64,000 bases of DNA. Origin: Candidatus Hydrogenedentota bacterium. GTDB lineage: Bacteria; Hydrogenedentota; Hydrogenedentia; Hydrogenedentales; JAEUWI01. Where the stretch lies: assembly GCA_034669905.1 (NCBI GenBank), contig JAXMOL010000043.1:1-64000 (forward strand), written 5' to 3'. The notes beneath the pieces are model-generated. The model did not search any database. It saw only the letters and a list, made by a program, of their open reading frames with translations, and was not told the origin of the DNA. Shown in pieces: positions 35,253 through 62,760 of the stretch (within the stretch, counting starts at the first letter, position 1; every line of letters starts with the position of its first letter). The translations under genes were made by a program, and so were the position numbers.

Positions 35253-38200
35253 CTATTCACTGCGCAGTGCGTCAAAGTGTTCCTTGCGAAATCCCAGCAA
35301 GATGGCCCCGGCGGTGCAGCCCACGGAAACGATAAACACGAGGATGGCCAGCTGGAGTTGAATGCCCACGTCGACGGAGGACTGGGTGGCGAAGAGGGCA
35401 GGTATGACGGCGAAGGACGCGGCAAGGATGCCCGTACCAAGGCCCGCGAGGAGCAGGAATCCGTACTCCACGTAGAGCATGCGGATGATCGCATGGTGGG
35501 GGAATCCCAGGGCGCCGAGCATGGCGAGTTCGCCCCGGCGCTCCAGGAGGTTTCGCAAGACCACGATGCCCATGCCTACACTGCCGATGGCAAGTCCCAG
35601 CCCGCCAAGCACGAGGAACATGGCGAGGTAGGTGGTTTCTACGGCGTAGAATTCCATGATACGATCCACCGGTGGGAAGGCGTCGAGGCCATAGCGTTCA
35701 TAGGCGCGGTTGAGGGCCTGGGTCGTCTGCGCGGTACTTCCTTCCTCGGTGTCAATAAGAAACATGCGGAAGCCTTCTTCGGTGGGGAAGAGGCGGGTAA
35801 AGTTTTCATCGCTCAACAGAATCTTCCCCTGAAAGACACTCAGGCGCATGGGCAGGGCGCCGACCAATTGAACCGCCACCTCTTCGCCGGAGGCATTCTC
35901 ATAGCGTAATTGCCCGCCCCCTTCGAGGGAGGCTTTTTTCTTCAGGGTCCACATGGCGGTGTTGGCGTCACCTGCCAGGGCCGGAATAGCCCCGTTGGGG
36001 AGGGTCACATTGAGGCGCTCCCACAGCTCCCGGGCTTCCGCCTCCGAGGCGAAGGCACCCCGGCGAATAAAGTCGTCCACGTGAATACCCACGACACCGG
36101 GCTGTTGCGAACTGTTGAGGTTCAGGCAGCTTGCATCGGCGCCGTCGCGCACTTTGATTGCCGACACGGCGTCCTTGTCGGCCAGGCCTTCCACTACCGG
36201 TTTTTCCAGGAGAGGAAAGGTGCTTTCCGCCAGGAGATCAAAGCCGCCCGTGCCCGCCGAACGCTGGTGGGCGTTGGCCTGCAGGTCTTCCTGCATGGCG
36301 GACACAGCAAAGACGAGGAAGGCACCGCCCGCGAGGAGTGAGAGGGTGGCGATGCTCCGTCCGCGCCGTCGTGCGACGTTTTGCAGGGCGAGGCGCGAGA
36401 GGGTCAGGCGGGTGCTCTCGCCCGTGCCGAGGCGCATGAGCGTATAGCGGCACAGCAACAACACGGCGACCAGCAGGAGGCTGCCTGCACCAAAGCCCAG
36501 GAGCGATGCGTTGTGCACCTGGGTCATGAGGAGTCCCACCAGGGCCAGGAAGGCGAGGAGCACGCCACCGAGTCCACCGATAAGGCTCAAGCCCTGGGCA
36601 CGCCCGTCGCCACTGGTGCGCAGGGCTTGCGAGAAGTCGGTTTGCAGGAGCTCCCGGGCGGGGCGCTTCAGGTGGCGGCGCAGGGCAATGTACATGGTGA
36701 CCATGGCGCACACGATGCTGATGAGGGTCCCGAGGAGCAGTGTCCCCGTCGTGGCGTGGTAGCGGATGGCCGCATTGGCCAGTGCCCCTTGCCAATAGTG
36801 GGCGAGTCCAAAGAGGAGGGCGCGGGTGTAGAGGGTGGAGAAGGCAGCACCCAGCAGGGCCCCCACGGTGGCCAGTAGTAACCCCTCGGCGAGGTATAGA
36901 CGGCGTACGTGTTTGGGAAGGAGTCCCACGGCCAGGAGCATACCCATTTCACGGGTGCGGTGCTGAATGCCGAAGACAAACAAGAGCCCCGTCAGAATCA
37001 GGGCCGCGGCGATGATGAAAAAGCTCATCCCGATGAAGAGACCGCCGAAATCCATGGCGTTGTTGACCGCTTCCCGGGCCTGGGCCTGTACCGGTTGGAA
37101 TTCGAGTCCCATGAGGGCCGGGTCGAGGGCCGCGGTTAATGTAGTGGTCAGGGCGGGGATGTCCGCTTCTGTTCCGGGATAGCGGATGGCGGTGTAGGCG
37201 CCGAATCGGTTCGCCCACATGTCCTGTCCCGCAGCCAGGGTGACGAGGCCCTTGGGCAATTGCCGGTAGGCATCCCAATAGGCCTCATTGGCTTCGTCTT
37301 CGAGCTTCTCGTCGTCCATCGGCATGCCGACGTCCCAGTCGGCACAACTGTCGACATCACTCAGGCCGGGGAATACGGGCATCATGGCGCGTTCCCCCTG
37401 GAGGGCTTCCATCTCGCGGACGGAATGGACCCGGAAGTCCCGCGTGTGTTCGACGAATTCATTGGCGGCCGTCAGTTCATAGTAGGCCACCGTGACCCTA
37501 TCCCCGATCGCCAGGGAAAGTTGGTCGGCGAGCCAGCGGTTGACCACCATCTCGTCGTCGGCCATGTCCGGGGGAACCGGTCCGGCTGTCATGAAGGAAT
37601 AGGGCGTCGTGCCTTTTGCGCTCTCCAGGCTGTTGACCAGGTAGGTCAGCGTGCCCGAAGCACCCTCCCGGGCCAGTGCGGCCCGGGCCACGTCCTCGGC
37701 GATATAGACCCCCTCGGATTCGAGTTGCACGATGTTCCCGGGGTAGGCTTCGAGGGAGAGGCCCGAGTCGGCAATTCGCCAGGACGCCTCCAATGCCGCC
37801 TGAAGGGTATCGGTCGGGGTGTCCTGGGGCGAGAGGAGGAGATTCACCTTACCGGGAAGCTCCAACTGTGCCTGGAGGGCATCCCGTTGGGTGAAGGCGT
37901 TGTAGGGCGCGATCTGGGTGGGTGCGAGACTGAAGCGTCCCAGGCTGTCGTCGGGCAGCACGGATTTCACCGTATAGCTGCGGCGAACCGAGCGATCATC
38001 ATCCCGCGCCGAGAGCCCGGCATCTCGGGGGAGGAGGGAAGGTTTTTCTACGCGGAGGGCCACTTCATCACCCGCCGCGGCTCCCAGTGCTTCTGCGAGT
38101 TTCTGGCTGAGGGCGACTTCGTTGGCTTCGAGGGAAAGGGGCTCCCCGTCGGCCAGGGTCCAAAAAGTGTCGGTTACGCCCACCACATCAACCAGGTTTA

Positions 38201-38513
38201 CCTGTTGGCGGTCGTCGGCCTGGTTGCCCTGGGTGATGGCCATGCCACGGAGGGCCAGCGCTGCCACGACAGGCGCTCCAGTGCGTTCGCTCAGCCGTTC
38301 GGCGAGTTGTTGATCCACGTAATTGGTGCGGGTACTGATGGCATGTTGCGTATGCCCCAGCCGCAATTCCGCAAATCGATTGAGTGAGTAATCGACCGAG
38401 TCGCCCACGAGGAGGGCCCCGGTGAGCACGGCGGCTGCGAGGGCGACCCCGAGTAATACGCCCAGATGCATGCGCCAGTAATAGCGCAGGCTGCTTTTTA
38501 TCAGGTGGGTCAT
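35253..38513 (-). CDS. Large ABC transporter permease with duplicated MacB/FtsX domains
   Basis: ALLVGDSV, RTREMGMLLAVG, ERRGELAMLGALG; ATGA overlap with the ATPase. Confidence 0.9.
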   Translation of the reverse strand: MTHLIKSSLRYYWRMHLGVLLGVALAAAVLTGALLVGDSVDYSLNRFAELRLGHTQHAISTRTNYVDQQLAERLSERTGAPVVAALALRGMAITQGNQADDRQQVNLVDVVGVTDTFWTLADGEPLSLEANEVALSQKLAEALGAAAGDEVALRVEKPSLLPRDAGLSARDDDRSVRRSYTVKSVLPDDSLGRFSLAPTQIAPYNAFTQRDALQAQLELPGKVNLLLSPQDTPTDTLQAALEASWRIADSGLSLEAYPGNIVQLESEGVYIAEDVARAALAREGASGTLTYLVNSLESAKGTTPYSFMTAGPVPPDMADDEMVVNRWLADQLSLAIGDRVTVAYYELTAANEFVEHTRDFRVHSVREMEALQGERAMMPVFPGLSDVDSCADWDVGMPMDDEKLEDEANEAYWDAYRQLPKGLVTLAAGQDMWANRFGAYTAIRYPGTEADIPALTTTLTAALDPALMGLEFQPVQAQAREAVNNAMDFGGLFIGMSFFIIAAALILTGLLFVFGIQHRTREMGMLLAVGLLPKHVRRLYLAEGLLLATVGALLGAAFSTLYTRALLFGLAHYWQGALANAAIRYHATTGTLLLGTLISIVCAMVTMYIALRRHLKRPARELLQTDFSQALRTSGDGRAQGLSLIGGLGGVLLAFLALVGLLMTQVHNASLLGFGAGSLLLVAVLLLCRYTLMRLGTGESTRLTLSRLALQNVARRRGRSIATLSLLAGGAFLVFAVSAMQEDLQANAHQRSAGTGGFDLLAESTFPLLEKPVVEGLADKDAVSAIKVRDGADASCLNLNSSQQPGVVGIHVDDFIRRGAFASEAEARELWERLNVTLPNGAIPALAGDANTAMWTLKKKASLEGGGQLRYENASGEEVAVQLVGALPMRLSVFQGKILLSDENFTRLFPTEEGFRMFLIDTEEGSTAQTTQALNRAYERYGLDAFPPVDRIMEFYAVETTYLAMFLVLGGLGLAIGSVGMGIVVLRNLLERRGELAMLGALGFPHHAIIRMLYVEYGFLLLAGLGTGILAASFAVIPALFATQSSVDVGIQLQLAILVFIVSVGCTAGAILLGFRKEHFDALRSE

Positions 38514-39205
38514 GAGGCATCCCCCTGGGGGAGCAGTTGACCGGATTTCAAGGTGTATACCGTACCCATGCGTGCGGCCACGTCAGGTGCGTGGGTGACC
38601 ACAATCAGTCCCATCTTGTGTTCCGCGTTCAGCTCCAGGAGGAGATCGGTCAGGGCCCCGGAACCTTCCTCACTCAACGCGCCGGTCGGCTCGTCGGCGA
38701 GGAGGAGATCGGGTTGGTTAATCAAGGCCCGCACTACGGCGACCCGTTGCCGTTCGCCCCCGGAAAGTTGGCCGGGACGGTGGTTTACCCGATGACCCAG
38801 GCCGACCCGGTCCAGCAACTGGCGGGCGCGCTCTGGTGCATCGGGGTCGGGCGTGCCTGCGAGGGTAGGCACCAGGACGTTTTCCAGGGCTGTGCATTGG
38901 GGCAAGAGGTGGTGGAGCTGAAAGACAAAGCCGATGGCGCGATTGCGGAAGGCGGCCCGGTCCGTTTCATCGAAGTCATCCAGCCCTTCACCGTTGAAGG
39001 TAATCGTGCCGTTGGTGGGGGTGTCCAGCAGGCCGATCAGGTTCAGGAGTGTGCTCTTGCCACAGCCGGAAGGCCCGACGATAGCCAGGGATTCGCCTGT
39101 GTGCACCTGAAGGTTGATGTCTTCGAGGACCGCGGTCGGGGTGCCGTCGCCGTCGTAGGTCTTGCTGATGTGCGAAAGTGAAAGAATGGGGGCGGTATTG
39201 TCCAC
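38510..39205 (-). CDS. ABC ATP-binding protein, LolD/MacB type
   Basis: GPSGCGKST, GFVFQLHHLL, LSGGERQRVA, LLADEPTG; GTG start at 39205 inferred. Confidence 0.93.
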   Translation of the reverse strand: MDNTAPILSLSHISKTYDGDGTPTAVLEDINLQVHTGESLAIVGPSGCGKSTLLNLIGLLDTPTNGTITFNGEGLDDFDETDRAAFRNRAIGFVFQLHHLLPQCTALENVLVPTLAGTPDPDAPERARQLLDRVGLGHRVNHRPGQLSGGERQRVAVVRALINQPDLLLADEPTGALSEEGSGALTDLLLELNAEHKMGLIVVTHAPDVAARMGTVYTLKSGQLLPQGDAS

Positions 39206-39242
39206 AATAAAATAACCTGTCTGGTTGGAGGTAATCGGCGCG

Positions 39243-40586
39243 CTACTCGGGAGTGCCAAAGGCGCTGAGACTACCATCATCACTACCGACGATAATCATC
39301 CCCTCGATAATAGAGGGCGAAGAAATTTCATCACTGACTTCAAAGGACCACAGTTCCTTGCCCGTTTCCAATGCCAGGAGGGATAGGACCCCGCCCGCAC
39401 CGACCACGACCTTATCCCGCGCAATGACGGGGGACATGGTCAGGCCCCGGGCGGCGAATTTCCAGCGCAGCGATCCGTTGGCACGATCGAGGGCATAGAA
39501 GTTGTCATCCATGGAGCCGAAAATAACGTGGGTGGGGGATACGGCGGGTGTGGTGAAGATTTCGCTTTCCGCATCGGTGTTGCTCCACACGATCTCGCCC
39601 GTCTTGGTGTCGGCGTGGAAGAGTTCCCCGCTGTGGCTTCCGGAGAAGAGGGAGGTGCCCCGAAAGGCCACGCCCCCGGCCACCTGATCGTCGTCACCCA
39701 GCGAGATGTTATGGAGGATTTCGCCCGAGTCGGCGGAAATGACATGCAAGGCCGAAGCACAGCTACCGAAGGCCAGGACGCCCGCGCCGCTGGAGGGGGA
39801 GCCGTCGCAGCGATCGATGGGTTCACTTTTCCAGAGGGGCGTGCCGTCATTCATGTTGAGGCAATGGAGGGCGCCGTCGTCCTGCCCGATGACATAAACA
39901 CGCGGGGGCAGGTCTCCTGCGGCAGGTTGCATGGTGACGGCACCGAGAATGGTGCTGTCGATATCGGTCTGCCACTTGTCCTTGCCCGTGGCAGCATCCA
40001 GGGCATGGAGGGTACCCGCCATGGTACCGACGAAGACCGTTTCGCCAAAGCAGGATACGGGGCCGTCAACGCGGGCGTTTTTCTCCGTCTGATCCACGGG
40101 CGATATGCGCGTGAGTTGCTTGGACCAGGCTTTGACGCCCTTGAAGTCCACCCCGAAAACTTCGCCCTTGCTGGTGACGAAATGAAGCAGTTTCTCCGAG
40201 GCGACCGGGCCATGGTAGATGGCCCCATTGGCCTGAAAGCGCCACAGGCGACTGGGTTCGTCCGGCAGGGACACATCGATGACGCCAGCCAGCTGGGCGT
40301 CTCCGTGATAGGTAGACCATTGCTGGGCGGTTGGCTCATCGGTGGGGGGCGGGGGTGTTGCTGGGCTTTCTTTGGGGGCCGGGACGACCTCAGGGGCCGA
40401 CTCAGTCCATGGGGTCGTTGCGGCGGGCGCGGGGGCCGGGGGCGTTTCTTGTGCCTTGGGCGCGGGAGTGACCGCTGATTCTTTGGCGGTCGGTGCCGAT
40501 GTGAACCATCCCTGCATCACGCCCCATCCGAGCACCAACACAATGATGACAAAGAAGGGGGCCATAGAAACTAACTTGTCTTTCAT
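39243..40586 (-). CDS. Membrane-anchored PQQ-like/BamB beta-propeller with Pro-rich linker
   Basis: N-terminal TM, PAPAP linker, WSTYHGD, repeated ALDxxTGxxxW. Confidence 0.88.
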   Translation of the reverse strand: MKDKLVSMAPFFVIIVLVLGWGVMQGWFTSAPTAKESAVTPAPKAQETPPAPAPAATTPWTESAPEVVPAPKESPATPPPPTDEPTAQQWSTYHGDAQLAGVIDVSLPDEPSRLWRFQANGAIYHGPVASEKLLHFVTSKGEVFGVDFKGVKAWSKQLTRISPVDQTEKNARVDGPVSCFGETVFVGTMAGTLHALDAATGKDKWQTDIDSTILGAVTMQPAAGDLPPRVYVIGQDDGALHCLNMNDGTPLWKSEPIDRCDGSPSSGAGVLAFGSCASALHVISADSGEILHNISLGDDDQVAGGVAFRGTSLFSGSHSGELFHADTKTGEIVWSNTDAESEIFTTPAVSPTHVIFGSMDDNFYALDRANGSLRWKFAARGLTMSPVIARDKVVVGAGGVLSLLALETGKELWSFEVSDEISSPSIIEGMIIVGSDDGSLSAFGTPE

Positions 40587-41875
40587 GAATTCACATACCT
40601 CGAATAGACGGCGAGCGTACGTTCGGCCATACGCTCGGTTGAAAACTGTTCCTGTACCGCGGTGCGACCGGCTTCGCCCAGGGCTTTCGCCTTATCGTAA
40701 TCCAGCAAGAGGGCTTCCAGCGTGCGGGTGAGGCCATCGGCATCGCTCGGGTCATAGAGCAAGCCACCACCCGTTGCATGGACGACTTCGGGGAAGGCAC
40801 CGGCGGCCGGTTGCACCACCGGAACGCCCGAGGCCAGGGACTCGATAATAAAAAGCCCAAAGGCTTCGCCTTCTTCCGCCGGGACCGACATAACTGAGAT
40901 GGATTGGATGAACTTGAGACGTTCTTCCGCGTCAAAGTCATCCAGAAACTCGACATCGTGTTCCATGCCATGTTTCGCGAGCTTTTTCTTGAGCCATTTC
41001 ACATAGGTTACATCGCCCCCCACCTGGCCACCCGTTGCCCGCAGTTTAAGGTTGCCGAGCCGCGGGTGTTGTTTCAGGTGGATGAAGGCGTCGATCAGCT
41101 TACCCAGTCCCAGGGAATCGGTCATCTTGGAGAGATAGCCGATGACCGGTGGGTCAAAGGAAAGGGTGCCGCCGTTTGTTTCCGGCGTCTTGATACCCAG
41201 GTGGACCACATAAACCTTGTCATCGGGGAGGGCCATCCGCTTTTTCATGACGTCGGCATACCACTGGCTCACCGCGACGAAGGCGTCCACGTCTTTGCCG
41301 CAGTGGGTCATGGCTTCCCAGCAGAGCTGGCGATAGGGCTCATCAATCGCTTCGATCCAGGGTTCTTCATCCTGGAGACTACAGAACAGGGGGCAGTTGA
41401 GGGTGTCTTTCAGGGTGCGCGCCATACCCAGGAGCAGCGCATTGGACAGGTGGATGACGTCGGGCTTCTCCTGATCGCGCAACCACGTGATCATCCGGTC
41501 CAGTTCTTTCTTCTGGTGCCCTTCGGGACCTTCCAACATGGAGAGGGTCATGGGGCCCAGCCCTGCGGCCTCGGTGCTGCCTTCTTTCTTGGCGGCCTGG
41601 CGGAGCATCCATGCCCCGTCAAAGAGCTTGTCCAGCCAACGGGGTGTGCGTCGGAAAAGGGGGAACTTCTGCTGAAGGTAGCAGTTGATTCCCCCGAAGA
41701 ACACGGGCGTGTCGTCATTGATATCGGGCGCATCCACCAGGAGGGGCAGATAGACCGGTATCATCAGGACCTCATGCCCTTCCCGACGCAAGGTGCGGAC
41801 GAGCTCGATATCGCGCATGCAATTCTGGCAATAGAAGGTGCCACCGGTTCCGGGGACGATGTAGACAATTTTCAT
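40583..41875 (-). CDS. Glycosyltransferase family 4 (GT-B) with N-terminal CxxC
   Basis: PGTGGTFYCQNCMRD; EAFGLFIIESLASGVPVV (EX7E). Confidence 0.9.
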   Translation of the reverse strand: MKIVYIVPGTGGTFYCQNCMRDIELVRTLRREGHEVLMIPVYLPLLVDAPDINDDTPVFFGGINCYLQQKFPLFRRTPRWLDKLFDGAWMLRQAAKKEGSTEAAGLGPMTLSMLEGPEGHQKKELDRMITWLRDQEKPDVIHLSNALLLGMARTLKDTLNCPLFCSLQDEEPWIEAIDEPYRQLCWEAMTHCGKDVDAFVAVSQWYADVMKKRMALPDDKVYVVHLGIKTPETNGGTLSFDPPVIGYLSKMTDSLGLGKLIDAFIHLKQHPRLGNLKLRATGGQVGGDVTYVKWLKKKLAKHGMEHDVEFLDDFDAEERLKFIQSISVMSVPAEEGEAFGLFIIESLASGVPVVQPAAGAFPEVVHATGGGLLYDPSDADGLTRTLEALLLDYDKAKALGEAGRTAVQEQFSTERMAERTLAVYSRYVNS

Positions 41876-43240: not shown

Positions 43241-43467
43241 GGTAATACTCCTTGGTTATTTCCGTCCCGCCACGCGGGGAAGCGTCTGTGTATGCGATAC
43301 TTGCAGCCGCGCAGAGTCTTCGTTTAGAGTTGTATTCACAAGCGGCATCCCTTTGTTTCATTGACGTGATGCCGTATCGATAGTATAGGGCAAACGACTA
43401 CCGCGTCCACAGTTTTACCCGCGCGGTAAAACAGACGCTTTCCGATGCGACAGAAAAGGAATTGACG

Positions 43468-46403: not shown

Positions 46404-46413
46404 TGGAGACGTG

Positions 46414-52415: not shown

Positions 52416-53930
52416 TTATAGTTTGATCCAGGTCGTGGTGTGACAGGCCTCGATATCTTCCTTGTTGCGAAACGCGATGGCTGCCGTAGGACAGGCCTGT
52501 ACACATTCGGCCGCCGATTTTTTCAGGCCCTCATCCAGGCTGCGCCCGAAAGGAACCTTGATATCCATATCGAAGCCACGGCCACTGAAGGCCAGGCCGA
52601 TATCTTCGCCATACTTCTCGGCAATCTCGACGCAGAGCCCACAGCGAATACACTTGCCCGGCTCCAGGTAGACATCACCACCGAGGCCCACAAAGGTGAC
52701 CTTTTTCTCTTCGGTCGTATTGTATTTCCGTTGCTCGGCTCCATATTCATGGGACCACTTCCGGAGCGTACAGGTTACCCGCTTCCGACAATCACAGTGG
52801 AGGCACCGTCCGGCTTCCGTTCGGGAGTCCGCCAGTTCCACTTCGTCCTCGATAGGGGCGACCGGCATGGCCTCGGTGTTTTCGTTGTGGTCGCGCATGT
52901 CCTCCATCTCCGCCTTCACCATCTTGCCAATCTTGGACTCGAAAAGCTTCTTGTCGGGTTTCGGGTCCACACTGGTCATGTAACGGTCGACCCACGCTGC
53001 GGTCGTTTTACCGTTTCCGACTGCCATTACCGTGAGCTTGTGCTCCTTCGCCCCAAAGACCTTGCCACCGGGTTTGGGCATGCCGTTGCAGGCGATGATG
53101 ATGCCGTCATAGTCCTCCTTCAAGGCCTCCAGCATCTCTTCGTCCACCTTCTGGCTATAACGATATTCCACGCCCAGCTTGGCGATGAATTCAATTTCTG
53201 TATCCAGCACGTGTTTGGGGAGCTTCTTGTCGGGCAGGTCGCGGAGCTTACCACCGGCCTTTTCGTCCTTTTCAAAGAGCACGACGGCGTGACCCCGTTT
53301 ACGCAACACCCAGGCCGCGGCCATGCCGGTGGCGCCGGCGCCGATAATGGCCACCTTCTTGCCCGAATCGGGGGGGCATTCCAGAAGCTCGGGGTTTTCC
53401 TGCAGGGACTTCTCCGCCACGTTACGGTGAAGCATACGAATCTTCATGGTCTCGTCGTAGCTTTTCCGCCGACAGGGGTTTTCGCAGGGGGCGGGGCATA
53501 CGTAGCCGAGGGTCCAGGGAATGACGAGGCCGTTGTGAATGGTGAAGGCTGCGTCGTCAAACTTGCCCTCGTAAATTTCGCGCATCATGACGGGGATGTT
53601 CATGGAAGCGGGACAGGTGTGGGCGCAGGGCGCTTCACAGTCGCCAATGTGCTCACTGAGAATCAGCTCCAGCACTTCCTTCCGCGCGGTGCAGACGTCG
53701 CCGGTGTCCGTTTCGATCTTCATGCCGTCCTGGGCGATGGTGCTGCAGGAGGAATGGATCTGGCCCGTGTCCACGTTGCGCACGGAGCACAACATGCAGG
53801 AATTCATGGGCTTGACGCCTTCCCAGTAGCACAGGGTCGGGATTTCAATATCGAGTTTACGTGCGGCCTGCAAGAGGGTCGTACCCGCTTCGACCTCGAT
53901 TTCCCGGTTGTTAATGCTGACGGTAGGCAT
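52416..53930 (-). CDS. Fe-S flavoprotein: NuoG/HydA-type N-terminal 2Fe-2S + GltD-like Fe-S/FAD module (shortened) + ferredoxin motif; no catalytic domain
   Basis: [61 protein letters not shown]. Confidence 0.85.
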
Positions 53931-53944: not shown

Positions 53945-56392
53945 TTAAACACGGGAACCGGCCTTGATGGCGTCCACTGGACAGGCCACCAGGCAGTAGT
54001 CACATCGTGTGCAAATATCCAAATCAATATGGTGCATCTTAAAGGGGGCCGACTCGATACAATCGACGGGGCAGACCTGGGCGCACTTGGTGCAGCCGAT
54101 GCAATTGTCTTCAACCCAATAGTCGATGAGGGGCTTACACTTGCCTGCCGGGCAACGTCCCTCGATGTGGGCTTCGAACTCTTCACGGAAATACATGAGG
54201 GCGGTGAGTACCGGGTTGGGGGCGGTTTTTCCCAGACCACACAGGCTCTGGCTCTTGACGACCTTACCCAACTCCTCCATCAACTCGATGTCGGACTCTT
54301 TGCCTTCACCCTGGCACAGGCGGGTCAACATTTCTTTCAGGCGCATGGTGCCAATTCGGCAGGGCGAGCACTTGCCACAGGACTCGTCCTGGGTAAAGGA
54401 GAGGAAATAGCGGGCCATTTCGACGATACAGTCCGAGTCGTCGAGCACTACCATCCCGCCGGAACCCATCATGGCACCGATTTCCGCCAGGGCTTCAAAG
54501 TCGACGGGCGTGTCGGCCATGGAAGCGGGGATGACGCCCCCCGAGGGGCCACCCACCAGCATGGCCTTGAACTTGCGCCCATCGGCAATGCCGCCGCCGA
54601 TGTCTTCCACAATCTGGCGGATAGTAATCCCCATGGGCACCTCGATGAGACCCCCGTTTCGGATTTTTCCGGCCAGCGAGAACACCTTGGTGCCCTTGCT
54701 CTTTTCGGTTCCGAGTTTGGCAAATTCTTCGGCACCCTTTCGGACAATCCAGGGGATGACCGCCAGGGTTTCCGTGTTGTTGATAAGCGTGGGGCACTCG
54801 TAGAGTCCCGAGATCGCGGGGTAGGGAGGACGCATGGTGGGCATGCCCCGCTTCCCTTCGAGGGAGGCAATGAGGGCTGTTTCTTCGCCACAGACGAAGG
54901 CCCCCGCACCTTCCTTTACCCGAAGGTGGAGGTTGTGTCCCGAGCCGAGGAAGTTGTCGCCCAGGATCCCGGCTTTCATGCAGTCGTCAATGGCCCGTCG
55001 CATCTGCTTGGTGGCCAAGGGGTATTCGGCCCGAATGTAGAGGATACCCTCGTCGGAGCCCACGGCCAGAGCACTGATGATCATGCCCTCAATCACCCGG
55101 TAGGCGTAGGACTCCAGAATCATGCGGTCCATGAAGGCCCCGGGATCGCCCTCGTCACCGTTGCAGATGATGTATTTCTTGTTTTTCGGGTTGGGCGCGT
55201 CATGGACGAACTGCCACTTTTTGCCCGTGGGGAAACCGGCCCCACCGCGTCCGCGCAGACCGCTGTTCATGATTTCATCGATGATGCGTTGGGGAGACCA
55301 GGCGGCCTCACTCCGGGGCAAATCCTTCAGGGAGGTGCCGGCATGGCGGGCCATCAGGATGCTGCCGTTTACTTTGCCGAAGAGGCACCGCTCGACCGCC
55401 GCAAAGCCACCCTTCCGCATGTACTCATCCAGATCGTGGGGGTCGATTTCACCGTGATGCTCGGTGGCGATGTGCATCTGGTTGCCCAGGAAGGCCGTCA
55501 CCTGTTCATCGCGAACCGTGCCGTCGTGTCGGGAAACCCGCTGCTCACCCCCGTGGACATCTACATAGAGATTGTCTGCCCAGCGCAGTGCGGTGGAGCG
55601 GAGGCGGGACAGGGCGTTCTGGGGTTTAAAATGTTTCGCAATGATATCCGGAATATCATCGGTGGTAACCCGGAGATACATGGTTGGCTCTTTGCCTTCT
55701 TCCACGATCTCCAGCACGGGCACCTGGTGGCACATGTGGACGCAACTTACGTGTTTAACGGGCACGGTGGATTCAATGCCTGCGAGGGCCATTTCCACGG
55801 CCGCATCGATGCGATCGGTACCACCGGCGACGCAGCAGGAATCCAGACCGATGCGAATCTCGGTGCCATTCTCGACGACCTTTCGCGCGATGGCGCTCTG
55901 GTCGTTGTCCTTGTCTTTCTCCCGCTGTTCGAAATCACGCATGGTGGCGTCGATGGACTCGGGGCCGACGTTTGCATAGGTGACCCCGTCAATTTGCACG
56001 GCGGGGGCCAGGGAACAACATCCGATACAGGCCACTTTCTGAATCGTATAGTTGCCGTCGTCGTCGGTGTCCGCGCCCTTCTTCAAATTGAGGTGATCGG
56101 ACAGGGCCTCGTGGACATCTTCGGCTCCCTTCACGTGGCACGCGGTGCCGTCGCAGAGACTGATGACGTGGTTGCCCACGGGGTCGCGCCGAAACTGGGA
56201 ATAGAAAGTGGCTACGCCCTCTATGGTCGCGGGGGTAATGTCGGTGAGTTCACAGACCCGCTCCAACGCTTCGCCGGGCAGGTAGCGATACTCGGTCTGA
56301 ATCGCCTGCAGGATTGGGATGACCGCTTCGGGGCCCCGTCCCTGCTGATCCACGATCGCGTCTATATGGGTGATATCCAAAGTCTCGGCCAT
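53945..56392 (-). CDS. NuoE-NuoF fusion (HydC/HydB-like NADH diaphorase) with extra thioredoxin-like 2Fe-2S and C-terminal 2x[4Fe-4S]
   Basis: CDGTACH..ACIGCC; SCCVAGG..SCVHMC; SGLRGRGGAGFPTGKKW; NGDEGDPGAFMDR; GAFVCGEET; ESCGKCSPCRIG; CIGCTKCAQVCP; CTRCDYCLVACP. Confidence 0.93.
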   Translation of the reverse strand: MAETLDITHIDAIVDQQGRGPEAVIPILQAIQTEYRYLPGEALERVCELTDITPATIEGVATFYSQFRRDPVGNHVISLCDGTACHVKGAEDVHEALSDHLNLKKGADTDDDGNYTIQKVACIGCCSLAPAVQIDGVTYANVGPESIDATMRDFEQREKDKDNDQSAIARKVVENGTEIRIGLDSCCVAGGTDRIDAAVEMALAGIESTVPVKHVSCVHMCHQVPVLEIVEEGKEPTMYLRVTTDDIPDIIAKHFKPQNALSRLRSTALRWADNLYVDVHGGEQRVSRHDGTVRDEQVTAFLGNQMHIATEHHGEIDPHDLDEYMRKGGFAAVERCLFGKVNGSILMARHAGTSLKDLPRSEAAWSPQRIIDEIMNSGLRGRGGAGFPTGKKWQFVHDAPNPKNKKYIICNGDEGDPGAFMDRMILESYAYRVIEGMIISALAVGSDEGILYIRAEYPLATKQMRRAIDDCMKAGILGDNFLGSGHNLHLRVKEGAGAFVCGEETALIASLEGKRGMPTMRPPYPAISGLYECPTLINNTETLAVIPWIVRKGAEEFAKLGTEKSKGTKVFSLAGKIRNGGLIEVPMGITIRQIVEDIGGGIADGRKFKAMLVGGPSGGVIPASMADTPVDFEALAEIGAMMGSGGMVVLDDSDCIVEMARYFLSFTQDESCGKCSPCRIGTMRLKEMLTRLCQGEGKESDIELMEELGKVVKSQSLCGLGKTAPNPVLTALMYFREEFEAHIEGRCPAGKCKPLIDYWVEDNCIGCTKCAQVCPVDCIESAPFKMHHIDLDICTRCDYCLVACPVDAIKAGSRV

Positions 56393-58146
56393 CAGGATGC
56401 CTCAATGCAGTAGAGTTGCGATTCGGTCCGAATGTAAATGCGTCCATCCATGAACGCCGGGGTCGCATAGACGGGCTCGCCCATGTCAATGGCGCCCAGG
56501 CGTTCAAAGGTGTCGCCCGCGCGCACGATATGCATTATACCGGCCATATCGCCCAGATAAATGCGGTCGCCCACGAGAATGGGGGAGGAATAGAAGCCTT
56601 CGTCCATCTCTTCGACCCAGCGCTCTTCGCCGGTGGCGGCATCGAGACAGACAAAGTCGCCGATGGCGGTGCCGAAGTAGAAGTGGGTGCCGTCCCCGAC
56701 GGGGCTCGAGACCTCGGGAAGCAATTCATCGAATTGCCAGGTGACCTCGGTTTCGATGGCTTCGGCGGTGCCCCCCAAGGTGATACCAGAGGCCACCGCA
56801 TATTCGTTGGCGACGAAGACCATGCCATTGGCATAGGCGGGCGAGGGAGCCACTTCACCGCCGAGGCATTGCTCAGACCAGAGAAGGGTGCCCGTTGCCG
56901 GGGCATAGGCATCGGCGTTTTCTTCGGAACTTAAGATGAGTTGGGGGCCGAGCGTGGTCTGCGCCAGGATGGGGGAGGCCCAGGAAATCTTTTCACGGGG
57001 CGTGCTCCACACTTCTTTGCCCGTCGCGATATCAAGCCCCAGGAGCTTGCCGTCTTCCGACTGGTCGTACTGGACGAAAAGCAGGTTGTCATACGCGATA
57101 AGGGACGAAGAGTGACCATAGTGGTTTTCGGGGAGTCCCAGGTTGAAGCCCCACATCTGCTCGCCGTCGCGATCGAGCGCCACCAGGTCGCCGTTGGCAA
57201 AGGTGGCAAATACCTGGCTGCCATGGGCCACCATGGTGCAGGCTGCGAAGCCCGTATCTTCCATCACATCGAGATCGCCTGTCGGCGTATTGGGCAGGGG
57301 GGCCAGCGTGGTGGTCCAGAGGAGCTCACCGCTGTTGACGTCGTAGCAATAGACTTCCCGCTTCTCCGCGTCGGCACCGGCCATGTAGAGCCGGTCACCC
57401 CAGACGACGGGCGAGTTGTTGCCGGGCATGGGCGATTCCACTTTCCATAACACATTGGTGCCCGCTTCCACATCCCACGTTTCGGGGGCCGTGGTGTAGT
57501 GGGCAACCGCATTGGAGCCGGGCCCCCGGAAGCTGGGCCATTCCATCTGGATTTCTTCCCAGGTGGGCGGGACAATGAGGATATCGGGCGTCGACTCCGC
57601 GGCGCTATCCGCTTCCGAAGTGGTATTCTTCGCTTCGAGCAATTCTTCCGTGAGGGCGCTCTCGGTAAAATACGATGTCATCATACCTCCCGCCAGCAAT
57701 CCGACGCCCGCCCAGGTAATCAGGTTTCGCGATTGGGCGTAGGCCAGAAACTCTTTGTTGGCTGTTGGCTCATGATTTATGTCGGGCAGTTCGGGACGCC
57801 AGCGAATCATGTTCTTGAAGGCGATCAGAAACGTGCATACACAAACCAGCAGCGTCCAGGCGCCGATTCGCAAATGGGTCTGGCTCGTGAAAAAGGCCTT
57901 TCGGGTCATGAGGTCCAGATCCCGAATGCGCTGGGCCAGGGCCAGGTCCTTTTCCGGCAGGTTGGCGTACTCCATACGCATCTGGGTCAACAATTCATGA
58001 TTCACCGGATCGAGGCGTTGAATCTGCAGATAGTTCACCAGAAGCAGAATAAACACCAAGAGCGAAAAAAAGCCCGATACAATCGTTACCGTGGTAGAGA
58101 GACGCCAAATGAAGTCGCTCTTGTCAAACTCCTTTTTTTCTAACAT
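56392..58146 (-). CDS. PQQ-like/BamB beta-propeller with a 3-TM N-terminal anchor
   Basis: Three hydrophobic segments, then WPSFRGP and propeller repeats; stop overlaps the next ATG by 1 nt. Confidence 0.9.
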   Translation of the reverse strand: MLEKKEFDKSDFIWRLSTTVTIVSGFFSLLVFILLLVNYLQIQRLDPVNHELLTQMRMEYANLPEKDLALAQRIRDLDLMTRKAFFTSQTHLRIGAWTLLVCVCTFLIAFKNMIRWRPELPDINHEPTANKEFLAYAQSRNLITWAGVGLLAGGMMTSYFTESALTEELLEAKNTTSEADSAAESTPDILIVPPTWEEIQMEWPSFRGPGSNAVAHYTTAPETWDVEAGTNVLWKVESPMPGNNSPVVWGDRLYMAGADAEKREVYCYDVNSGELLWTTTLAPLPNTPTGDLDVMEDTGFAACTMVAHGSQVFATFANGDLVALDRDGEQMWGFNLGLPENHYGHSSSLIAYDNLLFVQYDQSEDGKLLGLDIATGKEVWSTPREKISWASPILAQTTLGPQLILSSEENADAYAPATGTLLWSEQCLGGEVAPSPAYANGMVFVANEYAVASGITLGGTAEAIETEVTWQFDELLPEVSSPVGDGTHFYFGTAIGDFVCLDAATGEERWVEEMDEGFYSSPILVGDRIYLGDMAGIMHIVRAGDTFERLGAIDMGEPVYATPAFMDGRIYIRTESQLYCIEAS

Positions 58147-58155: not shown

Positions 58156-59418
58156 CTACGCTCCTTCTTCAACGGGGCAATAGGGATAACAACGCCCGCA
58201 ACTGAAGCAGGTCTCTTTGTGGGGTTCGTAAATCCGGCGTTTCTTGACGACCGAAAGTTCTACCAGCTTGATGCTGATAATCAGGGCCATGAAGGCACCC
58301 AGCAGGGCACTCCCGATCTTAAACTGTTCTTTAATCGCCAGCGACTCGATGTGCAATTCCGCCGCTGTCTTGCCTTCTACCCGAAAGGTTTCGGTTTCGA
58401 GGATGGATTCCTGAACGAGTTTGCGATCCTCCTTGGCGATGCGCTCACTCAGGCTGACCGTGGGGTGCATGTGGGAAAGGGGCTCGTACATCATGTAGCC
58501 GCCCAGCGCACCGAGCAGAATGAAGAGGGGGCTGAGGAACAACAGCTTACGTACCCGCCGTTTGCCTTCCGCCGGATCGCCCACAAGGTGCTGGGGCGTG
58601 GGCATGTCGATGGCATTGTACGGGCAGGAGTCCTCACAGAGGCGACATTCCACACAGGGGGAGGGGGGAATTTCCAGGTGGTGCTTGGAAAAGCGGGACA
58701 TCCACCCCAGCAAAACGCCGTAGGGACAGAGGAAGCGGCAATAGGGTCGGGCAATGAATACCCCGATAAGGAGAATCAGCGCCGCTGCGATGAGCATGGA
58801 ATAGTTGTCGGCCATACGGTAAATGCGGACGAAGGGATCGTATCGGCAGATGAAGAAGCCTGAGCCCGTGGCCACGCCGAGGGTGGCCAGACCGAGGTAG
58901 AGGTACTTGCCGAGCCCCAGCACGCGTTCCAATGCGGGCGAAATGCGGATGGGCGCAATGGCCACCAACTCCTGCATGGCACCCAGCGGGCAGACCGAGG
59001 CACAAAAGACCCGGCCGAAGAAGAGCGAAAAGAGGAGGGGCAGCACGAAGAAGGCCACGATAATCCAGGAGACCCCCACGTTGGGGAGGAACACGGCCGC
59101 CATCACGTTTTGGGTAGAGCCCACCGGACAGATACATCCCTGTCGGTAGAAACCGAAGAACAACAAAGAAAACACGCTGATGGCGAAAAGTCCACGGCGG
59201 GAGCGGGCCTTGAAGACCATCCACGTTGTCGCAGACAGGGCCGCAAAGAGGATCAAGGCTTCCCACGGCGTGTTGCGCCCGGCTGGCTGGGGCGTAAACA
59301 AATACGGCATGCCATAGTCGGTCTCAAAATCCGGCGGCGCGAATTTCAACTCAATGGCCACGGCCGACTGCAGCAGCAATGTCGAAAGTGTCGCAATGGC
59401 GAGGGATAGATACTTCAT
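58156..59418 (-). CDS. Polytopic membrane 4Fe-4S protein (NapH/MauN/NosR-like)
   Basis: GCICPVG, FCASVCPLG, YCRFLCPYG, CVECRLCEDSCP, C-terminal CFSCGRCYPYCP; start ATG 59418. Confidence 0.88.
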   Translation of the reverse strand: MKYLSLAIATLSTLLLQSAVAIELKFAPPDFETDYGMPYLFTPQPAGRNTPWEALILFAALSATTWMVFKARSRRGLFAISVFSLLFFGFYRQGCICPVGSTQNVMAAVFLPNVGVSWIIVAFFVLPLLFSLFFGRVFCASVCPLGAMQELVAIAPIRISPALERVLGLGKYLYLGLATLGVATGSGFFICRYDPFVRIYRMADNYSMLIAAALILLIGVFIARPYCRFLCPYGVLLGWMSRFSKHHLEIPPSPCVECRLCEDSCPYNAIDMPTPQHLVGDPAEGKRRVRKLLFLSPLFILLGALGGYMMYEPLSHMHPTVSLSERIAKEDRKLVQESILETETFRVEGKTAAELHIESLAIKEQFKIGSALLGAFMALIISIKLVELSVVKKRRIYEPHKETCFSCGRCYPYCPVEEGA

Positions 59419-59420: not shown

Positions 59421-59987
59421 TCAGGCCGGGGGATGGGCGAGGTGGGTGTCGCCGGTTAGATACATGTAGGGATCGGATTCCGGCACTTCGCTGAAGCAGT
59501 CGGAAGGACAGGATTTGGCAATGGAACATTCGTTGCAATTGATGCAGATGTCCTGCCGAATCTGGAGGTAGAATGAGCCATTACCGAAGACGAGACAGGC
59601 CTTGACGCACTTGGCGCAGCCGATGCATTTGTCCTCGTGAATCTTATATTCGTAGTAGGGCGCTTCAATGAACTTGCGCTCAATGGCGGCCGTGGGGCAA
59701 AGCTGGTTTTCCGCCCCTGTATCGAGATCCCGGGAGCCGGGCTGCAGGTAGCCAAAGCACAGATCACAGTAGCCGCAAATGTCGAACTGATTCAGGCACT
59801 TGACCGCACTGGGATTGAGTACGCAGTGGGTGGTACAACGACCGCACTGGGTGCACTTGGCCGGATCCAGCTGCCAGTATTTCGCTTCCGCCTTTTGACC
59901 GACGGCCATCCAGGTCGCCCCGGTGAAAGTAAAGGCGGCCGCACTGCGCATGAAATCACGCCTGTCGAGTTTTTTTCGCTCGCTCAT
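59421..59987 (-). CDS. Polyferredoxin with twin-arginine signal (NapG/MauM-like role)
   Basis: DRRDFMRS...AEA; CTQCGRC, CGYCDLC, CIGCAKC, CINCNEC. Confidence 0.85.
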   Translation of the reverse strand: MSERKKLDRRDFMRSAAAFTFTGATWMAVGQKAEAKYWQLDPAKCTQCGRCTTHCVLNPSAVKCLNQFDICGYCDLCFGYLQPGSRDLDTGAENQLCPTAAIERKFIEAPYYEYKIHEDKCIGCAKCVKACLVFGNGSFYLQIRQDICINCNECSIAKSCPSDCFSEVPESDPYMYLTGDTHLAHPPA

Positions 59988-60183
59988 CGGGCTCGAGTCC
60001 TTTCTCCGGCAGGCTGCAGGAATGGTTGGCCCAACATTCGGCACAGAGGGTGGTGGTTTCAAAACACTCTTCCGGTGTCCTGGTGCCATGCATGGCCGCG
60101 ACGCCCAAGCCGCCCATGCCCAGGATCGCGCCCCGGCGGAACAAACGTTCCAGGAACTCTTGTCGGTTGATCGACGTTTTCAT
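59956..60183 (-). CDS. Small Cys-rich membrane/Tat-like protein
   Basis: INRQEFL...GAILGMGGLGVAA then C-X6-C-X2-C-X5-C; AAGG SD; overlaps the next gene. Confidence 0.65.
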   Translation of the reverse strand: MKTSINRQEFLERLFRRGAILGMGGLGVAAMHGTRTPEECFETTTLCAECWANHSCSLPEKGLEPDERAKKTRQA

Positions 60184-60255: not shown

Positions 60256-61272
60256 CTATTTTGCTGCTTGCTTGCTGGCCAGGGTGGTGCGGGTTTGCTC
60301 AAATATCCGCACCGCCTTCTTTCGGGGGTCGAGGACCAGAATCCGGTCGGAAGCATCGACGACCATATCGCCGATAGATTGGGGGACGTGGAAGGCACTG
60401 GACCCCACCACGAGCTCTTCAAAGCTCCCCGAAGTGACTTCAAAAATCTTAATGCGTACGGGCCCTTTTTCACCGGTCACCAATCGTCCCTTGCTGTTAA
60501 AGGCGATTTGCATGGGATTGCAGCATCCGGAGAAGCTGTCCAGCCGGGTGACATCGGGGCGGTACCAGGTCGTTACGATATCGCCATTCTCCCGGTAGCG
60601 CTCCAGGCCGAGCTTGCCGGGATTGACCACCCACAGATTGCCCTCGTTGTCGAAGGCCACATCAAAGTGGGCGCTGGGCGCTTCCAGGCCGGGGATATCG
60701 CGCGCTTCGTCGGCTTTGCCAAAGCTGTCCAACACGTTACCCTCATAATCGACCCGAAGTACGAGGCGGCTCCCGCCGTCTGCCAGGAAGACGTTTTCTT
60801 CACTGGCCGCCATGGCAGAGATGTGGGTGCGCTCAGAGAGGTCGCTCCACGTGGCCAGGGGGCTACGGTCCGGGCCGAGGACCAGTACCCGGTCTCCCAG
60901 ACCGACCAGCAGCTTGTTGTCCGGGGTCAGTTCGAGACACGTGGGGGTGCCGTCAATGTCGATACGGGAAGTTTCTTTGCCGGTGCTGTCGAAGACCGCG
61001 ATGGTGTTTTCGCCGGAGATGTAGAGATTGCCGTCGGCATCCGTTTCCAACGCCTTGGCCTGGTCGAAATCCGGGACGATCTGTCCGGTCTCTTCGAAGG
61101 CGGTCTCTACCTCATCGATCTCAAGGAGTTCCGAAATGTCATATTCGAGGTTGGGACCTGGTTCGGGGAACTTTTCTTCTTTGGAGACCAGGTGGAAATA
61201 GGCCCCGACGACGCATGCGATCGCTACACCAACCAGGTAGGGGTGTTTGGTTCTGCGTACCGGTTCTTTCAT
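60256..61272 (-). CDS. Membrane-anchored NHL-repeat beta-propeller with GCCNP motif
   Basis: N-terminal TM; DGNLYIS, FLADGG, LWVVNPG, FSGCCNP. Confidence 0.85.
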   Translation of the reverse strand: MKEPVRRTKHPYLVGVAIACVVGAYFHLVSKEEKFPEPGPNLEYDISELLEIDEVETAFEETGQIVPDFDQAKALETDADGNLYISGENTIAVFDSTGKETSRIDIDGTPTCLELTPDNKLLVGLGDRVLVLGPDRSPLATWSDLSERTHISAMAASEENVFLADGGSRLVLRVDYEGNVLDSFGKADEARDIPGLEAPSAHFDVAFDNEGNLWVVNPGKLGLERYRENGDIVTTWYRPDVTRLDSFSGCCNPMQIAFNSKGRLVTGEKGPVRIKIFEVTSGSFEELVVGSSAFHVPQSIGDMVVDASDRILVLDPRKKAVRIFEQTRTTLASKQAAK

Positions 61273-61293: not shown

Positions 61294-62760
61294 CTAGGCG
61301 CCCACGTCAACACACACTAAGTTATTCATATCCCGCAACAAGATGCGGTCACCGGCAATGGCGATGGGTCCCCAGGCGTCGTGACCGTGTAATACCTGGG
61401 CTTCGCCGAGCTGGCGATACTCCTGGCTGGCCCCGTCGATCATGGTGAACTTTCCGTCGTCATCCAGTATATAGAACTTGTTGTCCGCCAGCAAAAAAGG
61501 CCCCAGACCAAAGCGGTTATCATTTCCGCTGGACCAGACCAGGTTGCCGTCGGTGTCGTAGCAGACGAATTGCCCCTTCAGCGGCCCGGCATCTTTGGGC
61601 ATGATGCTGTAGAGCAGTCCGTCGTGAAAGATGGGGGTCTGTTGCTCACAGGCAAGCCCTTCTTCCGGACTCGTGCGGAAGAGGGTGTCCACCGTGTAAC
61701 CCCCTGCACCGTCTTCTTCCAGCTGGAGCATCATGGCCCCCGTGCTGTAGCCTGCCGTTACGAAAATCTTGTCGTCCCCGGCGACGACCGGGGAGGGGGC
61801 CACCACTTTGGCTTCCCAGGAAACATCCCACAGGAGCTTGCCGGCATCGGGGCCGTCGGCCGCCACCCCCGCCACGCCGCCGATGGCGCTGTAGACATAC
61901 ATGTTGCGCCCCAGCAGGGTCATGGGGATGATGGAGGAGTGGGACATGTTCCACCCACGGGGATTGGGGCACGTCCAGGCGATTTCACCGGTTTCACAAC
62001 TGATGGACATCATAAGGACGTCGGTACCGGCAGGGGCGACAATCACGTGGTCGTCCACAATGGGCGGACACTGACCGGCATACCAGAGGGGCTCTTTGGT
62101 GCCATAGTCGCGCTGGAGATCGTAACCCCACCGGAAGTCACCGGTTTCCCGATCGAGGCAAACGACATGACATTTGGGCCCCATGGTCACAATGTACTTG
62201 TCGGTGACGGCGGGGATGGTGCGCGACATGCCGTGGTTGCGCTTGATCTTAATCTCATAGGAGCGGCGCCAGATTTCTTTGCCATCGGCCAGGGAGAGGG
62301 CACGAAGGGAATCCGCCCGGCCGTCCACGTCATAATCCATTAAATAGACGATGCCGTCATAGACCGCCGGGGCCGCATAGCCATCACCAATGGGGATTTG
62401 CCAGGCAATTTCGGGGCCACTATCGCCCCAGGAATCGGCCAGGGCAGGCCCATCGGTTACGATATTATCGGAATTCGGACCGCGAAATTGGGTCCACCGG
62501 CCCGGCAAATCGGCGGGGATGCCGTCGGAGGCGATGAATACCCCGGAAAGTTCCGGCCCGGAATTCTCCAGCCCGGTGCGTTGGGGGAAGCCGTCCGTAC
62601 CGGGGATCTGGGTCTCAATGACCATTACCGGCGCACTGACCAGCCAATAGGCTATGGCGCACATGCCCGCTAACGTGAGGAAAAGGGCGGTGCCGGTCAT
62701 GGCATAGACGTTGGCCTTGCGATTGTCATCAAGGGACGTGATATCGAATGACATGTTCAT
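61294..62760 (-). CDS. Membrane-anchored PQQ-like/BamB beta-propeller
   Basis: TM; WTQFRGP; KRNHGMSRT; PLWYAGQCP; first gene of the redox operon. Confidence 0.9.
   Translation of the reverse strand: MNMSFDITSLDDNRKANVYAMTGTALFLTLAGMCAIAYWLVSAPVMVIETQIPGTDGFPQRTGLENSGPELSGVFIASDGIPADLPGRWTQFRGPNSDNIVTDGPALADSWGDSGPEIAWQIPIGDGYAAPAVYDGIVYLMDYDVDGRADSLRALSLADGKEIWRRSYEIKIKRNHGMSRTIPAVTDKYIVTMGPKCHVVCLDRETGDFRWGYDLQRDYGTKEPLWYAGQCPPIVDDHVIVAPAGTDVLMMSISCETGEIAWTCPNPRGWNMSHSSIIPMTLLGRNMYVYSAIGGVAGVAADGPDAGKLLWDVSWEAKVVAPSPVVAGDDKIFVTAGYSTGAMMLQLEEDGAGGYTVDTLFRTSPEEGLACEQQTPIFHDGLLYSIMPKDAGPLKGQFVCYDTDGNLVWSSGNDNRFGLGPFLLADNKFYILDDDGKFTMIDGASQEYRQLGEAQVLHGHDAWGPIAIAGDRILLRDMNNLVCVDVGA

Follow-up and report, generated by a model that had tools for sequence, protein, structure and literature searches.

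A widely conserved bacterial gene system that unites a Bfu-type flavoprotein core, a NapH-like membrane protein, β-propellers and a type VII ABC transporter

A stretch of 64,000 nucleotides from contig JAXMOL010000043.1 of a Candidatus Hydrogenedentota bacterium, here called the window and belonging to a genome (G000) that is 95.7% complete, harbours twelve core genes on its minus strand that very probably form a single system. They lie in two blocks, A and B. Block A begins with P61 (61294-62760; PF13360), a core eight-bladed propeller with one N-terminal transmembrane helix and a predicted periplasmic location, followed by a membrane-anchored NHL-type propeller with the vicinal cysteine pair FxGCCNP (60256-61272), and by a 75-residue protein that combines an RRxF motif, a hydrophobic stretch and four cysteines arranged as C-x5/6-C-x2-C-x5-C (59956-60183). 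Next come a NapG-like ferredoxin of the twin-arginine translocation (Tat) type (59421-59987), a NapH-like membrane protein (58156-59418) and the core propeller P3TM (56392-58146), whose three N-terminal helices carry a propeller predicted to be periplasmic. The block is completed by a NuoE-NuoF fusion (BfuC-BfuB; 53945-56392), endowed with an FMN/NADH site, clusters C1 and B1-B5 and the AFM and GGPSG signatures, and by an iron-sulfur (Fe-S) flavoprotein (BfuA; 52416-53930), a relative of NfnA devoid of both the NADPH-binding domain and the C-terminal molybdopterin-like domain. Along the whole run from P61 to P50, the pilin described below included, spacing ranges from -32 to 74 nucleotides, and the stop codon of P3TM overlaps the start of the NuoEF fusion.

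Block B comprises a family 4 glycosyltransferase (GT4; 40583-41875) with an E-x7-E motif and a conserved N-terminal CxxC, the core propeller P39 with its N-terminal anchor (39243-40586), an ATP-binding cassette (ABC) ATPase of the LolD/MacB type (38510-39283; 254 bits against TIGR02211, cut-off 308) and a duplicated permease of the MacB/FtsX type (35253-38513), a single-copy gene encoding 1086 residues with ten predicted transmembrane helices. Three soluble propellers are variable flankers of this core. P50 (50074-51312, minus strand) belongs to a multi-copy client-type family that often, if variably, adjoins the operon; P43 (43462-44772, plus strand), of another such family, is divergent from the rest of block B; P41 (41960-43240, minus strand) is 32% identical to P61 and stands first in the operon of several Hydrogenedentota. 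A first-pass annotation, made from the letters of the window, had described a coupled minus-strand run from 62760 to 50074 and a second block from 44772 to 35253. Pfam and NCBIfam labels confirm all the genes named in the run at their places, and the gene content of the second block is upheld with one correction, the plus strand of the propeller at 43462-44772. The same scans bear out that the interval is free of H-cluster, NiFe, molybdopterin and NuoH-N genes.

The six propellers that gave the first-pass annotation its headline are present, and their number alone is unremarkable, as 18 (by BLAST) to 23 (by hidden Markov model) propellers of this kind are found in the genome. A local expansion is discounted, with identities of 20-32% among the six and separate orthologues for each. 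It is the gene order conserved across phyla, not the number of propellers, that exceeds chance.

The unity of the blocks emerges from comparison of genomes, with the NHL protein, the best marker of block A, and the permease as marker of block B. Among 132 Hydrogenedentota genomes the NHL marker is present in 72 and the permease in 74; the two occur together in 70, the NHL protein alone in 2, the permease alone in 4, and neither in 56. Joint presence or absence is also observed inside five split families (f1 9/13, f3 19/23, f7 5/14, f10 1/4, f13 27-28/53). Ten related loci, chosen for their long contigs, were compared: six display an unbroken run P41-P61-NHL-ferredoxin-NapH-P3TM-NuoEF-flavoprotein-GT4-P39-ATPase-permease, two are interrupted by ArsG as in the window, one has the blocks back to back and one has the permease on another contig. 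The co-occurrence on which the first-pass annotation staked its proposal is therefore found. Its alternative, a conventional catalytic subunit as the conserved partner of the NuoEF fusion, did not materialize, no such subunit being a conserved neighbour in 90 loci.

Beyond these genomes, the NHL protein has 1234 representatives at E<=1e-30, the named matches being Candidatus Hydrogenedentota. A scan of GTDB confirmed 583 of 600 pattern matches and led to an estimate of ~1,700 stretches with the marker, from which 80 loci, biased to Bacteroidota, were kept; these include Planctomycetota, Kiritimatiellia, Latescibacterota, KSB1, Aminicenantes, Spirochaetaceae, Calditrichaeota and others. The same order is maintained in at least eight phyla at 30-55% identity. 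Where the loci leave room, P61 lies upstream of the NHL gene in 69 of 71, and downstream follow the ferredoxin (65/68), the NapH-like protein (61/62), P3TM (52/54) and the NuoEF fusion (48/49). The 75-residue protein, for which Pfam and NCBIfam gave no match, has family members in 34 other loci and is likely, judging from its motifs, an exported small metal protein. Fifty of the 80 carrier genomes, selected for the length of their loci or for taxonomic breadth, contain the permease in 47 cases and the GT4 in 43, and in Marinifilaceae the GT4 is kept at another site. In three Marinifilum genomes (L124, L125, L126) the ATPase sits in the operon beside the isoprenoid genes described below, the permease and the GT4 each having been relocated.

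It could be argued that no single pathway is involved and that separate modules were brought together by a mobile island or shared ancestry. The modules are indeed unlinked in some genomes (G091, the GT4 of Marinifilaceae, the isoprenoid genes here), and related genomes are not independent. Yet this explanation is very improbable in view of the joint presence and absence inside the five split families, the order kept across phyla at such modest identity, the retention of genes after relocation and a GC content of the system that is even with that of the genome.

Several neighbouring genes do not belong to the core. The DUF1559 pilin at 51343-52341 (minus strand), which the first-pass annotation had listed within the coupled run, is one of 59 paralogues and is missing at the equivalent place in the congeners G068 and G063. 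The interval between the blocks (44773-50073) is occupied by unrelated plus-strand genes: a small CxxC protein, an ArsF-like (NF040494) and an ArsG-like (NF040495) gene are inserted at 44984-46403, the last of these having a counterpart at this very position in G068 and G063 and close by in G091, and a heparinase II/III-like protein of 1177 residues with an F5/8 domain is encoded at 46315-49848, with three distant paralogues in the genome and none in the related loci. Comparison of these loci rules out the pilin, ArsF/ArsG-like and heparinase-like genes as core members. A 95-nucleotide imperfect palindrome, resembling repetitive extragenic palindromic elements, spans 49906-50000 and has matches of at least 60 nucleotides at 47 genomic places. 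Two open reading frames, at 63256-63930 (minus strand, 224 residues) and 29087-30181 (plus strand, 364 residues), have no Pfam match.

The cytoplasmic end of block A was first annotated as an NADH diaphorase; the NADH-linked NuoEF is there, and the term understates it, as signatures of Bfu-type bifurcation are present. The best match of the fusion in the PDB is NfnB, 9n5u_B (E 7e-188). The marks of bifurcation applied here are those set out in PMC9304861 and PMC7311640, and were counted in 62 aligned sequences. The ligands of the [2Fe-2S] cluster C1 in BfuC and of B1, B3 and B4 in BfuB are found in 60-62 of the 62, the misses being gaps. The five-ligand B2 site of the window consists of C655, C693, H742, C747 and C752; the histidine that marks bifurcating enzymes, H742, is present in 60/62 and C693 in only 27/62, a position also termed variable in the relevant part of PMC9304861. 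The B5 [2Fe-2S] cluster of the thioredoxin-like domain is represented by C187, C217 and C221 (60-62 of 62) in a GxxSC pattern like that of 9n5u_B, with an extra C186 beside these ligands. At the NADH site A419 and M421, together with GGPSG, are invariant (62/62), matching the AFM signature among the marks of Losey et al.; both candidate near-FMN phenylalanine positions, 499 and 557, are phenylalanine.

BfuA is more divergent. Two of its segments, residues 3-288 and 295-485, align to chains of the NfnA type, and residues 288 to 295 bridge positions 292 to 474 of the best match, so that ~180 residues with the NADPH motif are skipped. The NADPH-binding domain is missing in all 56 aligned homologues, which places the family outside the Nfn-Bfu (type 1) enzymes, and the complex is therefore not a transhydrogenase. 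As the NapH-like protein is the conserved neighbour that might take electrons, the third partner of the Bfu core is likely the NapH/NapG-like wire. The Bfu core is here probably connected to a Fe-S protein of the membrane instead of to a catalytic domain. The Nfn-Bfu/Stn transhydrogenase NfnABC (PMC9304861; PDB 9n5u) shares with it the BfuB/BfuC cluster set and FMN site, as well as the architecture of BfuA, with an N-terminal 2Fe-2S cluster, a His-ligated cluster interrupted by a GltD-like domain and one ferredoxin cluster. By contrast, the present system has BfuC fused to BfuB, has lost the NADPH-binding (~180 residues) and C-terminal domains, and stands beside genes for a membrane wire and for periplasmic propellers. 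Seventeen Bfu clades are left unassigned in PMC9304861 (Schut et al. 2022), from whose main text the words 'PQQ' and 'propeller' are absent, and the treatment of the H-cluster BfuABC of this phylum in PMC11406978, as far as its text was available, does not describe the present cluster.

The single NuoF-like gene of this genome is the fusion itself: neither a second NuoF nor any NuoH was found, nor an FeFe hydrogenase. A conventional partner elsewhere in the genome was discounted on reading by eye, the NiFe enzyme having its own sulfhydrogenase-like partners on contig C45 and four molybdopterin proteins residing in other contexts. The same inspection places Rnf, pyruvate:ferredoxin oxidoreductase and the NiFe hydrogenase in a cluster at C45:32001-56302, and futalosine-pathway-like genes at C32:17246-19222. 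Two COX1 genes are present, yet no complex I membrane arm was found.

The membrane segment of the system is formed by the NapH-like protein (PF12801), with invariant cysteines in two CxxxCP motifs, at C95, C97 and C191, and in a 2x[4Fe-4S] ferredoxin domain that is split by a helical hairpin. On a topology drawn from the helices of a structure model (pLDDT, a per-residue model confidence, 81.7) and the positive-inside rule, with one helix below the hydrophobicity threshold, the CxxxCP and ferredoxin cysteines are predicted to lie inside and C95, C97 and C191 outside. Neither sequence nor fold brought up a solved relative, the best match (Z 5.9) being on a helical hairpin, which is no proof of a new fold. 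In the adjacent ferredoxin the twin-arginine motif is conserved and 16 cysteines are invariant, room for four [4Fe-4S] clusters, and the N-terminal helices of P61 (one), the NHL protein (one) and P3TM (three) place the propellers outside in the predicted topology. The transmembrane Fe-S wire proposed at first pass is consistent with conserved cysteines on both predicted faces; that electrons move along it is inferred.

PF12801 with two CxxxCP motifs and a twin-arginine polyferredoxin are the hallmarks of NapH-like systems, and all are present. NapGH and its kin (NosR, PceC, NapH-ExaA; PMC8238504) share with block A the PF12801 protein, the CxxxCP and ferredoxin clusters, a Tat-type polyferredoxin and extracytosolic propeller proteins nearby. 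Here, however, an extra transmembrane hairpin splits the ferredoxin domain, and coupling would be to a cytoplasmic Bfu core, whereas NapH is proposed there to be coupled to quinol. No linked NapA, NosZ, PceA, NirS, ExaA or FMN-binding domain occurs in the window, and no such family recurs among 120 loci. NapH-like proteins paired with ExaA, an enzyme dependent on pyrroloquinoline quinone (PQQ), are the nearest precedent described in that source.

Among the propellers, the one that was modelled, P61, is eight-bladed (pLDDT 90.8) with BamB as the best Foldseek match and tetrathionate hydrolase and quinoprotein sorbose dehydrogenase as further nearest folds; weak profile matches are to quinoprotein ethanol dehydrogenase and tetrathionate hydrolase. 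Its conserved polar motifs are KRNHGxSRT, WYxGQCP, MSHSS and EQQTP, and the vicinal cysteine pair of the NHL protein is invariant. Scores fall far below those of known families: at most 69 of 480 bits for the quinoprotein model TIGR03075 and at most 148 of the 285 bits required by the BamB equivalog of NCBIfam. With BamB the propellers share the eight-bladed fold; they differ in identity (17-18%), in a patchy range and in the lack of BamA in the loci compared. A link to PQQ was not sustained, since no PqqE orthologue was found in any of five carriers (best 70 of 381 bits) and PqqC gave no match in this genome, the control genomes also giving none.

Scattered PQQ-like paralogues of the propellers came up solely in genomes with the system. 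In queries that scored 3-16 candidates per genome, single queries missing distant subfamilies, P50 matched 77 of the 132 Hydrogenedentota, namely 76 carriers of A or B and one 84%-complete genome, and 0/55 of the others, with 1-10 copies per genome. P43 matched 79 of 251 sampled Planctomycetota, all within the 85 carriers, and 0/166 others; matches in block-A genomes may be the operon's own propellers, and the query also reaches 45 of the 49 Planctomycetota carriers without block A, mostly with at least six copies. A cofactor system would show such a division into makers, users and clients, by analogy with PQQ and mycofactocin, whose client enzymes track the cofactor pathway. These two systems likewise have a synthesis module in a subset of genomes and many scattered clients confined to carriers; eight-bladed propellers are common to the PQQ system and this one, and the glycosyltransferase MftF that acts on mycofactocin parallels the GT4. 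The differences are that no PqqC or PqqE orthologue was found and no precursor peptide was seen here, and that the linked biosynthesis is isoprenoid, the ABC transporter a dedicated one of type VII and the donor a bifurcating one.

The same co-occurrence data would fit a catabolic direction, in which the propellers are periplasmic dehydrogenases that employ a cofactor of low potential. Their electrons would travel inward through the wire, and the Bfu core would split them to NAD+ and to ferredoxin that is then used by Rnf. The NapH-ExaA precedent (PMC8238504) and the weak quinoprotein and tetrathionate hydrolase matches of P61 favour this, as do the presence of Rnf and the complex I arm not found in this genome. 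It would require a cofactor below about -350 mV, the propeller subfamilies have no common catalytic motif and the TIGR03075 scores are far under the cut-off; we regard it as rather unlikely.

Block B has the make-up of a type VII ABC transporter (MacB/LolCDE fold), with a LolD/MacB-type ATPase and a permease containing MacB periplasmic and FtsX domains. No MacA/TolC or LolA partner recurs as a neighbour in the loci compared; the transporter is neither MacAB-TolC nor LolCDE proper, and P39, which is found with GT4, ATPase and permease also in loci that lack block A, takes the partner's place. The GT4 is cytoplasmic, since it has no signal or transmembrane segment, and its FYCxNCxRD motif, located in the acceptor domain, is unusual and may be a site for a metal or for thiol chemistry. 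Twenty permease regions of Planctomycetota (L162-L181), of which 19 lack block A, contain as neighbours a thioesterase (11), a HemN-like radical S-adenosylmethionine (SAM) protein (7), a flavin halogenase/reductase-like protein (6) and PaaK-like ligases (4 and 4). Four of the regions also have a chorismate-lyase-like protein, so labelled from weak similarity (E 0.0017) to 2nwi, a structure with that fold. Without block A, the permease is thus often found among small-molecule tailoring genes. Aldehyde and alcohol dehydrogenases, a sodium symporter and an EamA-like protein also recur beside GT4, P39 and the ABC genes in this phylum.

Clustering of the uncharacterised open reading frames of 120 loci revealed a third module, C, made up of five genes that lie beside the operon in several phyla: a ferredoxin-like protein, a radical SAM protein, a DUF116-polyprenyl synthase, a single alpha-barrel protein and a cyclase resembling squalene-hopene cyclase (SHC). 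This genome contains all five outside the window, at G000:C88:4333-11415. The cyclase, at 623 residues, is within the expected 550-700; it keeps DxDD, and has PDGDDT in place of the PDVDDT of SHC. The single-barrel protein weakly matches geranylgeranyltransferase II beta (E 4e-5) and, equally weakly, terpene cyclases. Around module C (G000:C88:250-12554, L121), here with a ferredoxin-like pair, are a coenzyme A transferase, a GcvH-like protein, a CobW-like GTPase and IscS; the latter three accompany it again in congeners and in a number of Planctomycetota, a hint of sulfur insertion.

Cyclase and synthase share one set of 14 genomes among the 132 Hydrogenedentota, every one of which (14/14) carries both blocks, and are also present in 17 of the 50 other carriers; 11 of 20 cyclase regions abut core A or B genes and 9 do not. 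Among the 251 Planctomycetota the NHL protein is present in 36, the permease in 81 and the cyclase in 65, the permease alone in 11 and none of them in 166. The permease accompanies the NHL protein in 33 of 36 cases and the cyclase in 61 of 65. Since both nearly always come with the permease, block B is the hub of the system and the permease its hub gene. PMC7306690 and PMC12414744 (preprint of the latter, PMC12324236) describe an SHC-like clade whose function they call unknown and whose substrate is probably not squalene; its sister group is the epoxy-polyprenyl cyclases, among them the meroterpenoid cyclase Lon15. DxDD, a length of ~600 residues, a range within the PVC (Planctomycetes-Verrucomicrobia-Chlamydiae) and FCB (Fibrobacteres-Chlorobi-Bacteroidetes) groups and the lack of an adjacent squalene synthase are common to that clade and the present cyclase, a candidate member. 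The available portions of the published account make no mention of PQQ-like propellers, ferredoxin or an ABC transporter; its supplementary gene context (Fig. S10, PMC7306690) may show part of this neighbourhood.

Two explanations other than a cofactor draw on these genes. Blocks B and C might serve to synthesize and transport a membrane lipid, a cyclic isoprenoid with a sugar attached that stands in for hopanoids, with the propellers as carriers or scaffolds and block A as the reductant for periplasmic tailoring. The DxDD cyclase aligned to SHC, the polyprenyl synthase, the nesting of C in B, the BamB-like fold and the LolD-like ATPase all suit such a role, which we nonetheless consider rather unlikely: most A+B genomes are without C, awkward for a structural lipid, and the ten or more scattered propeller paralogues per genome that track the permease are left unexplained. 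Alternatively, the propellers would be substrates, prenylated or glycosylated and released by the LolCDE-like transporter, with block A keeping cysteines reduced in the manner of DsbD. This improbable scheme gains from the geranylgeranyltransferase match, the invariant cysteine pair of the NHL protein, the MacB/LolCE-like permease and the strict linkage of propellers to permease. Against it, the single-barrel protein matches terpene cyclases just as weakly and is without the metal-binding cysteines of prenyltransferases, the GT4 is cytoplasmic, the propellers have no modifiable cysteine motif in common and DsbD-type work needs no bifurcating donor.

The reading that is favoured, at somewhat less than even confidence, is that module C makes a cyclic isoprenoid, block B glycosylates it and delivers it to propellers, and block A uses bifurcated electrons to hold it in the reduced state, while genomes with A and B alone rely on salvage. 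Gene content and order, co-occurrence, the cluster ligands and the missing NADPH domain are shown directly, and the steps that follow are inferred from them. The Bfu-type complex would merge the electrons of NADH and reduced ferredoxin, and the NapH/NapG-like Fe-S wire would carry them to the membrane-anchored periplasmic propellers. A compound X would be built by module C, glycosylated by the GT4, which might instead act on a salvaged precursor, lifted from the membrane by the type VII ABC transporter and handed to P39. The scattered PQQ-like propellers would bind X in place of PQQ, and P61, P3TM and the NHL protein with its cysteine pair would hold it reduced at low potential. Genomes with A and B that are without C would salvage X from neighbours, and those with B and C that are without A would recycle it otherwise, for example via respiration. 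Outward flow is given a slight preference over inward because the Bfu core works near -400 mV, too low for ordinary quinone feed; this potential is established thermodynamics, as presented in PMC9304861. The first-pass annotation had already envisaged a complex moving electrons between cytoplasmic NADH or ferredoxin and propellers that act on a glycosylated or exported product, which is supported in part; the movement of electrons and the action of the propellers are best worded as conjecture. Module C and the confinement of the propeller family to carriers had escaped that annotation.

A number of observations weigh against this cofactor reading. Module C is missing in 58 of 72 block-A Hydrogenedentota and 33 of the 50 other carriers, and salvage has to be assumed because most carriers would not make X themselves; nor is module C linked to A and B in G068 or in the genome studied here. 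No universal catalytic motif runs across the six propeller subfamilies, and the best structural match of P61, BamB, is non-enzymatic. BfuA may not even hold FAD, judging from its alignment, as the GD motif, which contacts FAD, is lost in all 56 homologues. Type VII ABC systems are not known to act as importers. A search, without positive control, for the chorismate-lyase-like gene came back empty in five block-A genomes, this one included, so an aromatic, quinone-like head is unsupported here. A strict limitation of block A to anaerobes is not upheld, COX1 being present in 2 of 5 block-A carriers (this genome among them) and in 5 of 5 non-carriers. Finally, genomic relatives are not independent, and the co-occurrence tables overstate independence accordingly.

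A literature search, thin on subscription journals, yielded no description of the cluster. Each part belongs to a known fold family, and the whole departs in a defining feature from each of Nfn-Bfu, Nap/Nos/Pce, PQQ, the β-barrel assembly machinery and MacAB/LolCDE. A bolder proposal, which we put forward as doubtful, is that of a new redox cofactor or shuttle, a glycosylated cyclic isoprenoid from the SHC-like module that would be loaded by the ABC transporter onto the PQQ-like propellers of Planctomycetota, Bacteroidota, Hydrogenedentota and their relatives. Producers and non-producers would exchange it, and a new, membrane-wired type of Bfu would recharge it across the membrane. Three questions are thereby joined in one gene set: the product of the SHC-like cyclase, the role of PQQ-like propellers in organisms without PQQ and the third partners of Bfu enzymes. 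Cultured strains of Marinifilum, Labilibaculum and Ancylomarina, among them Marinifilum flexuosum DSM 21950 and Labilibaculum sp. K2S, carry the three modules together. If the proposal is true, common sediment and digester bacteria would possess an unrecognised electron route out of the cytoplasm, and possibly a new biomarker lipid or cofactor.

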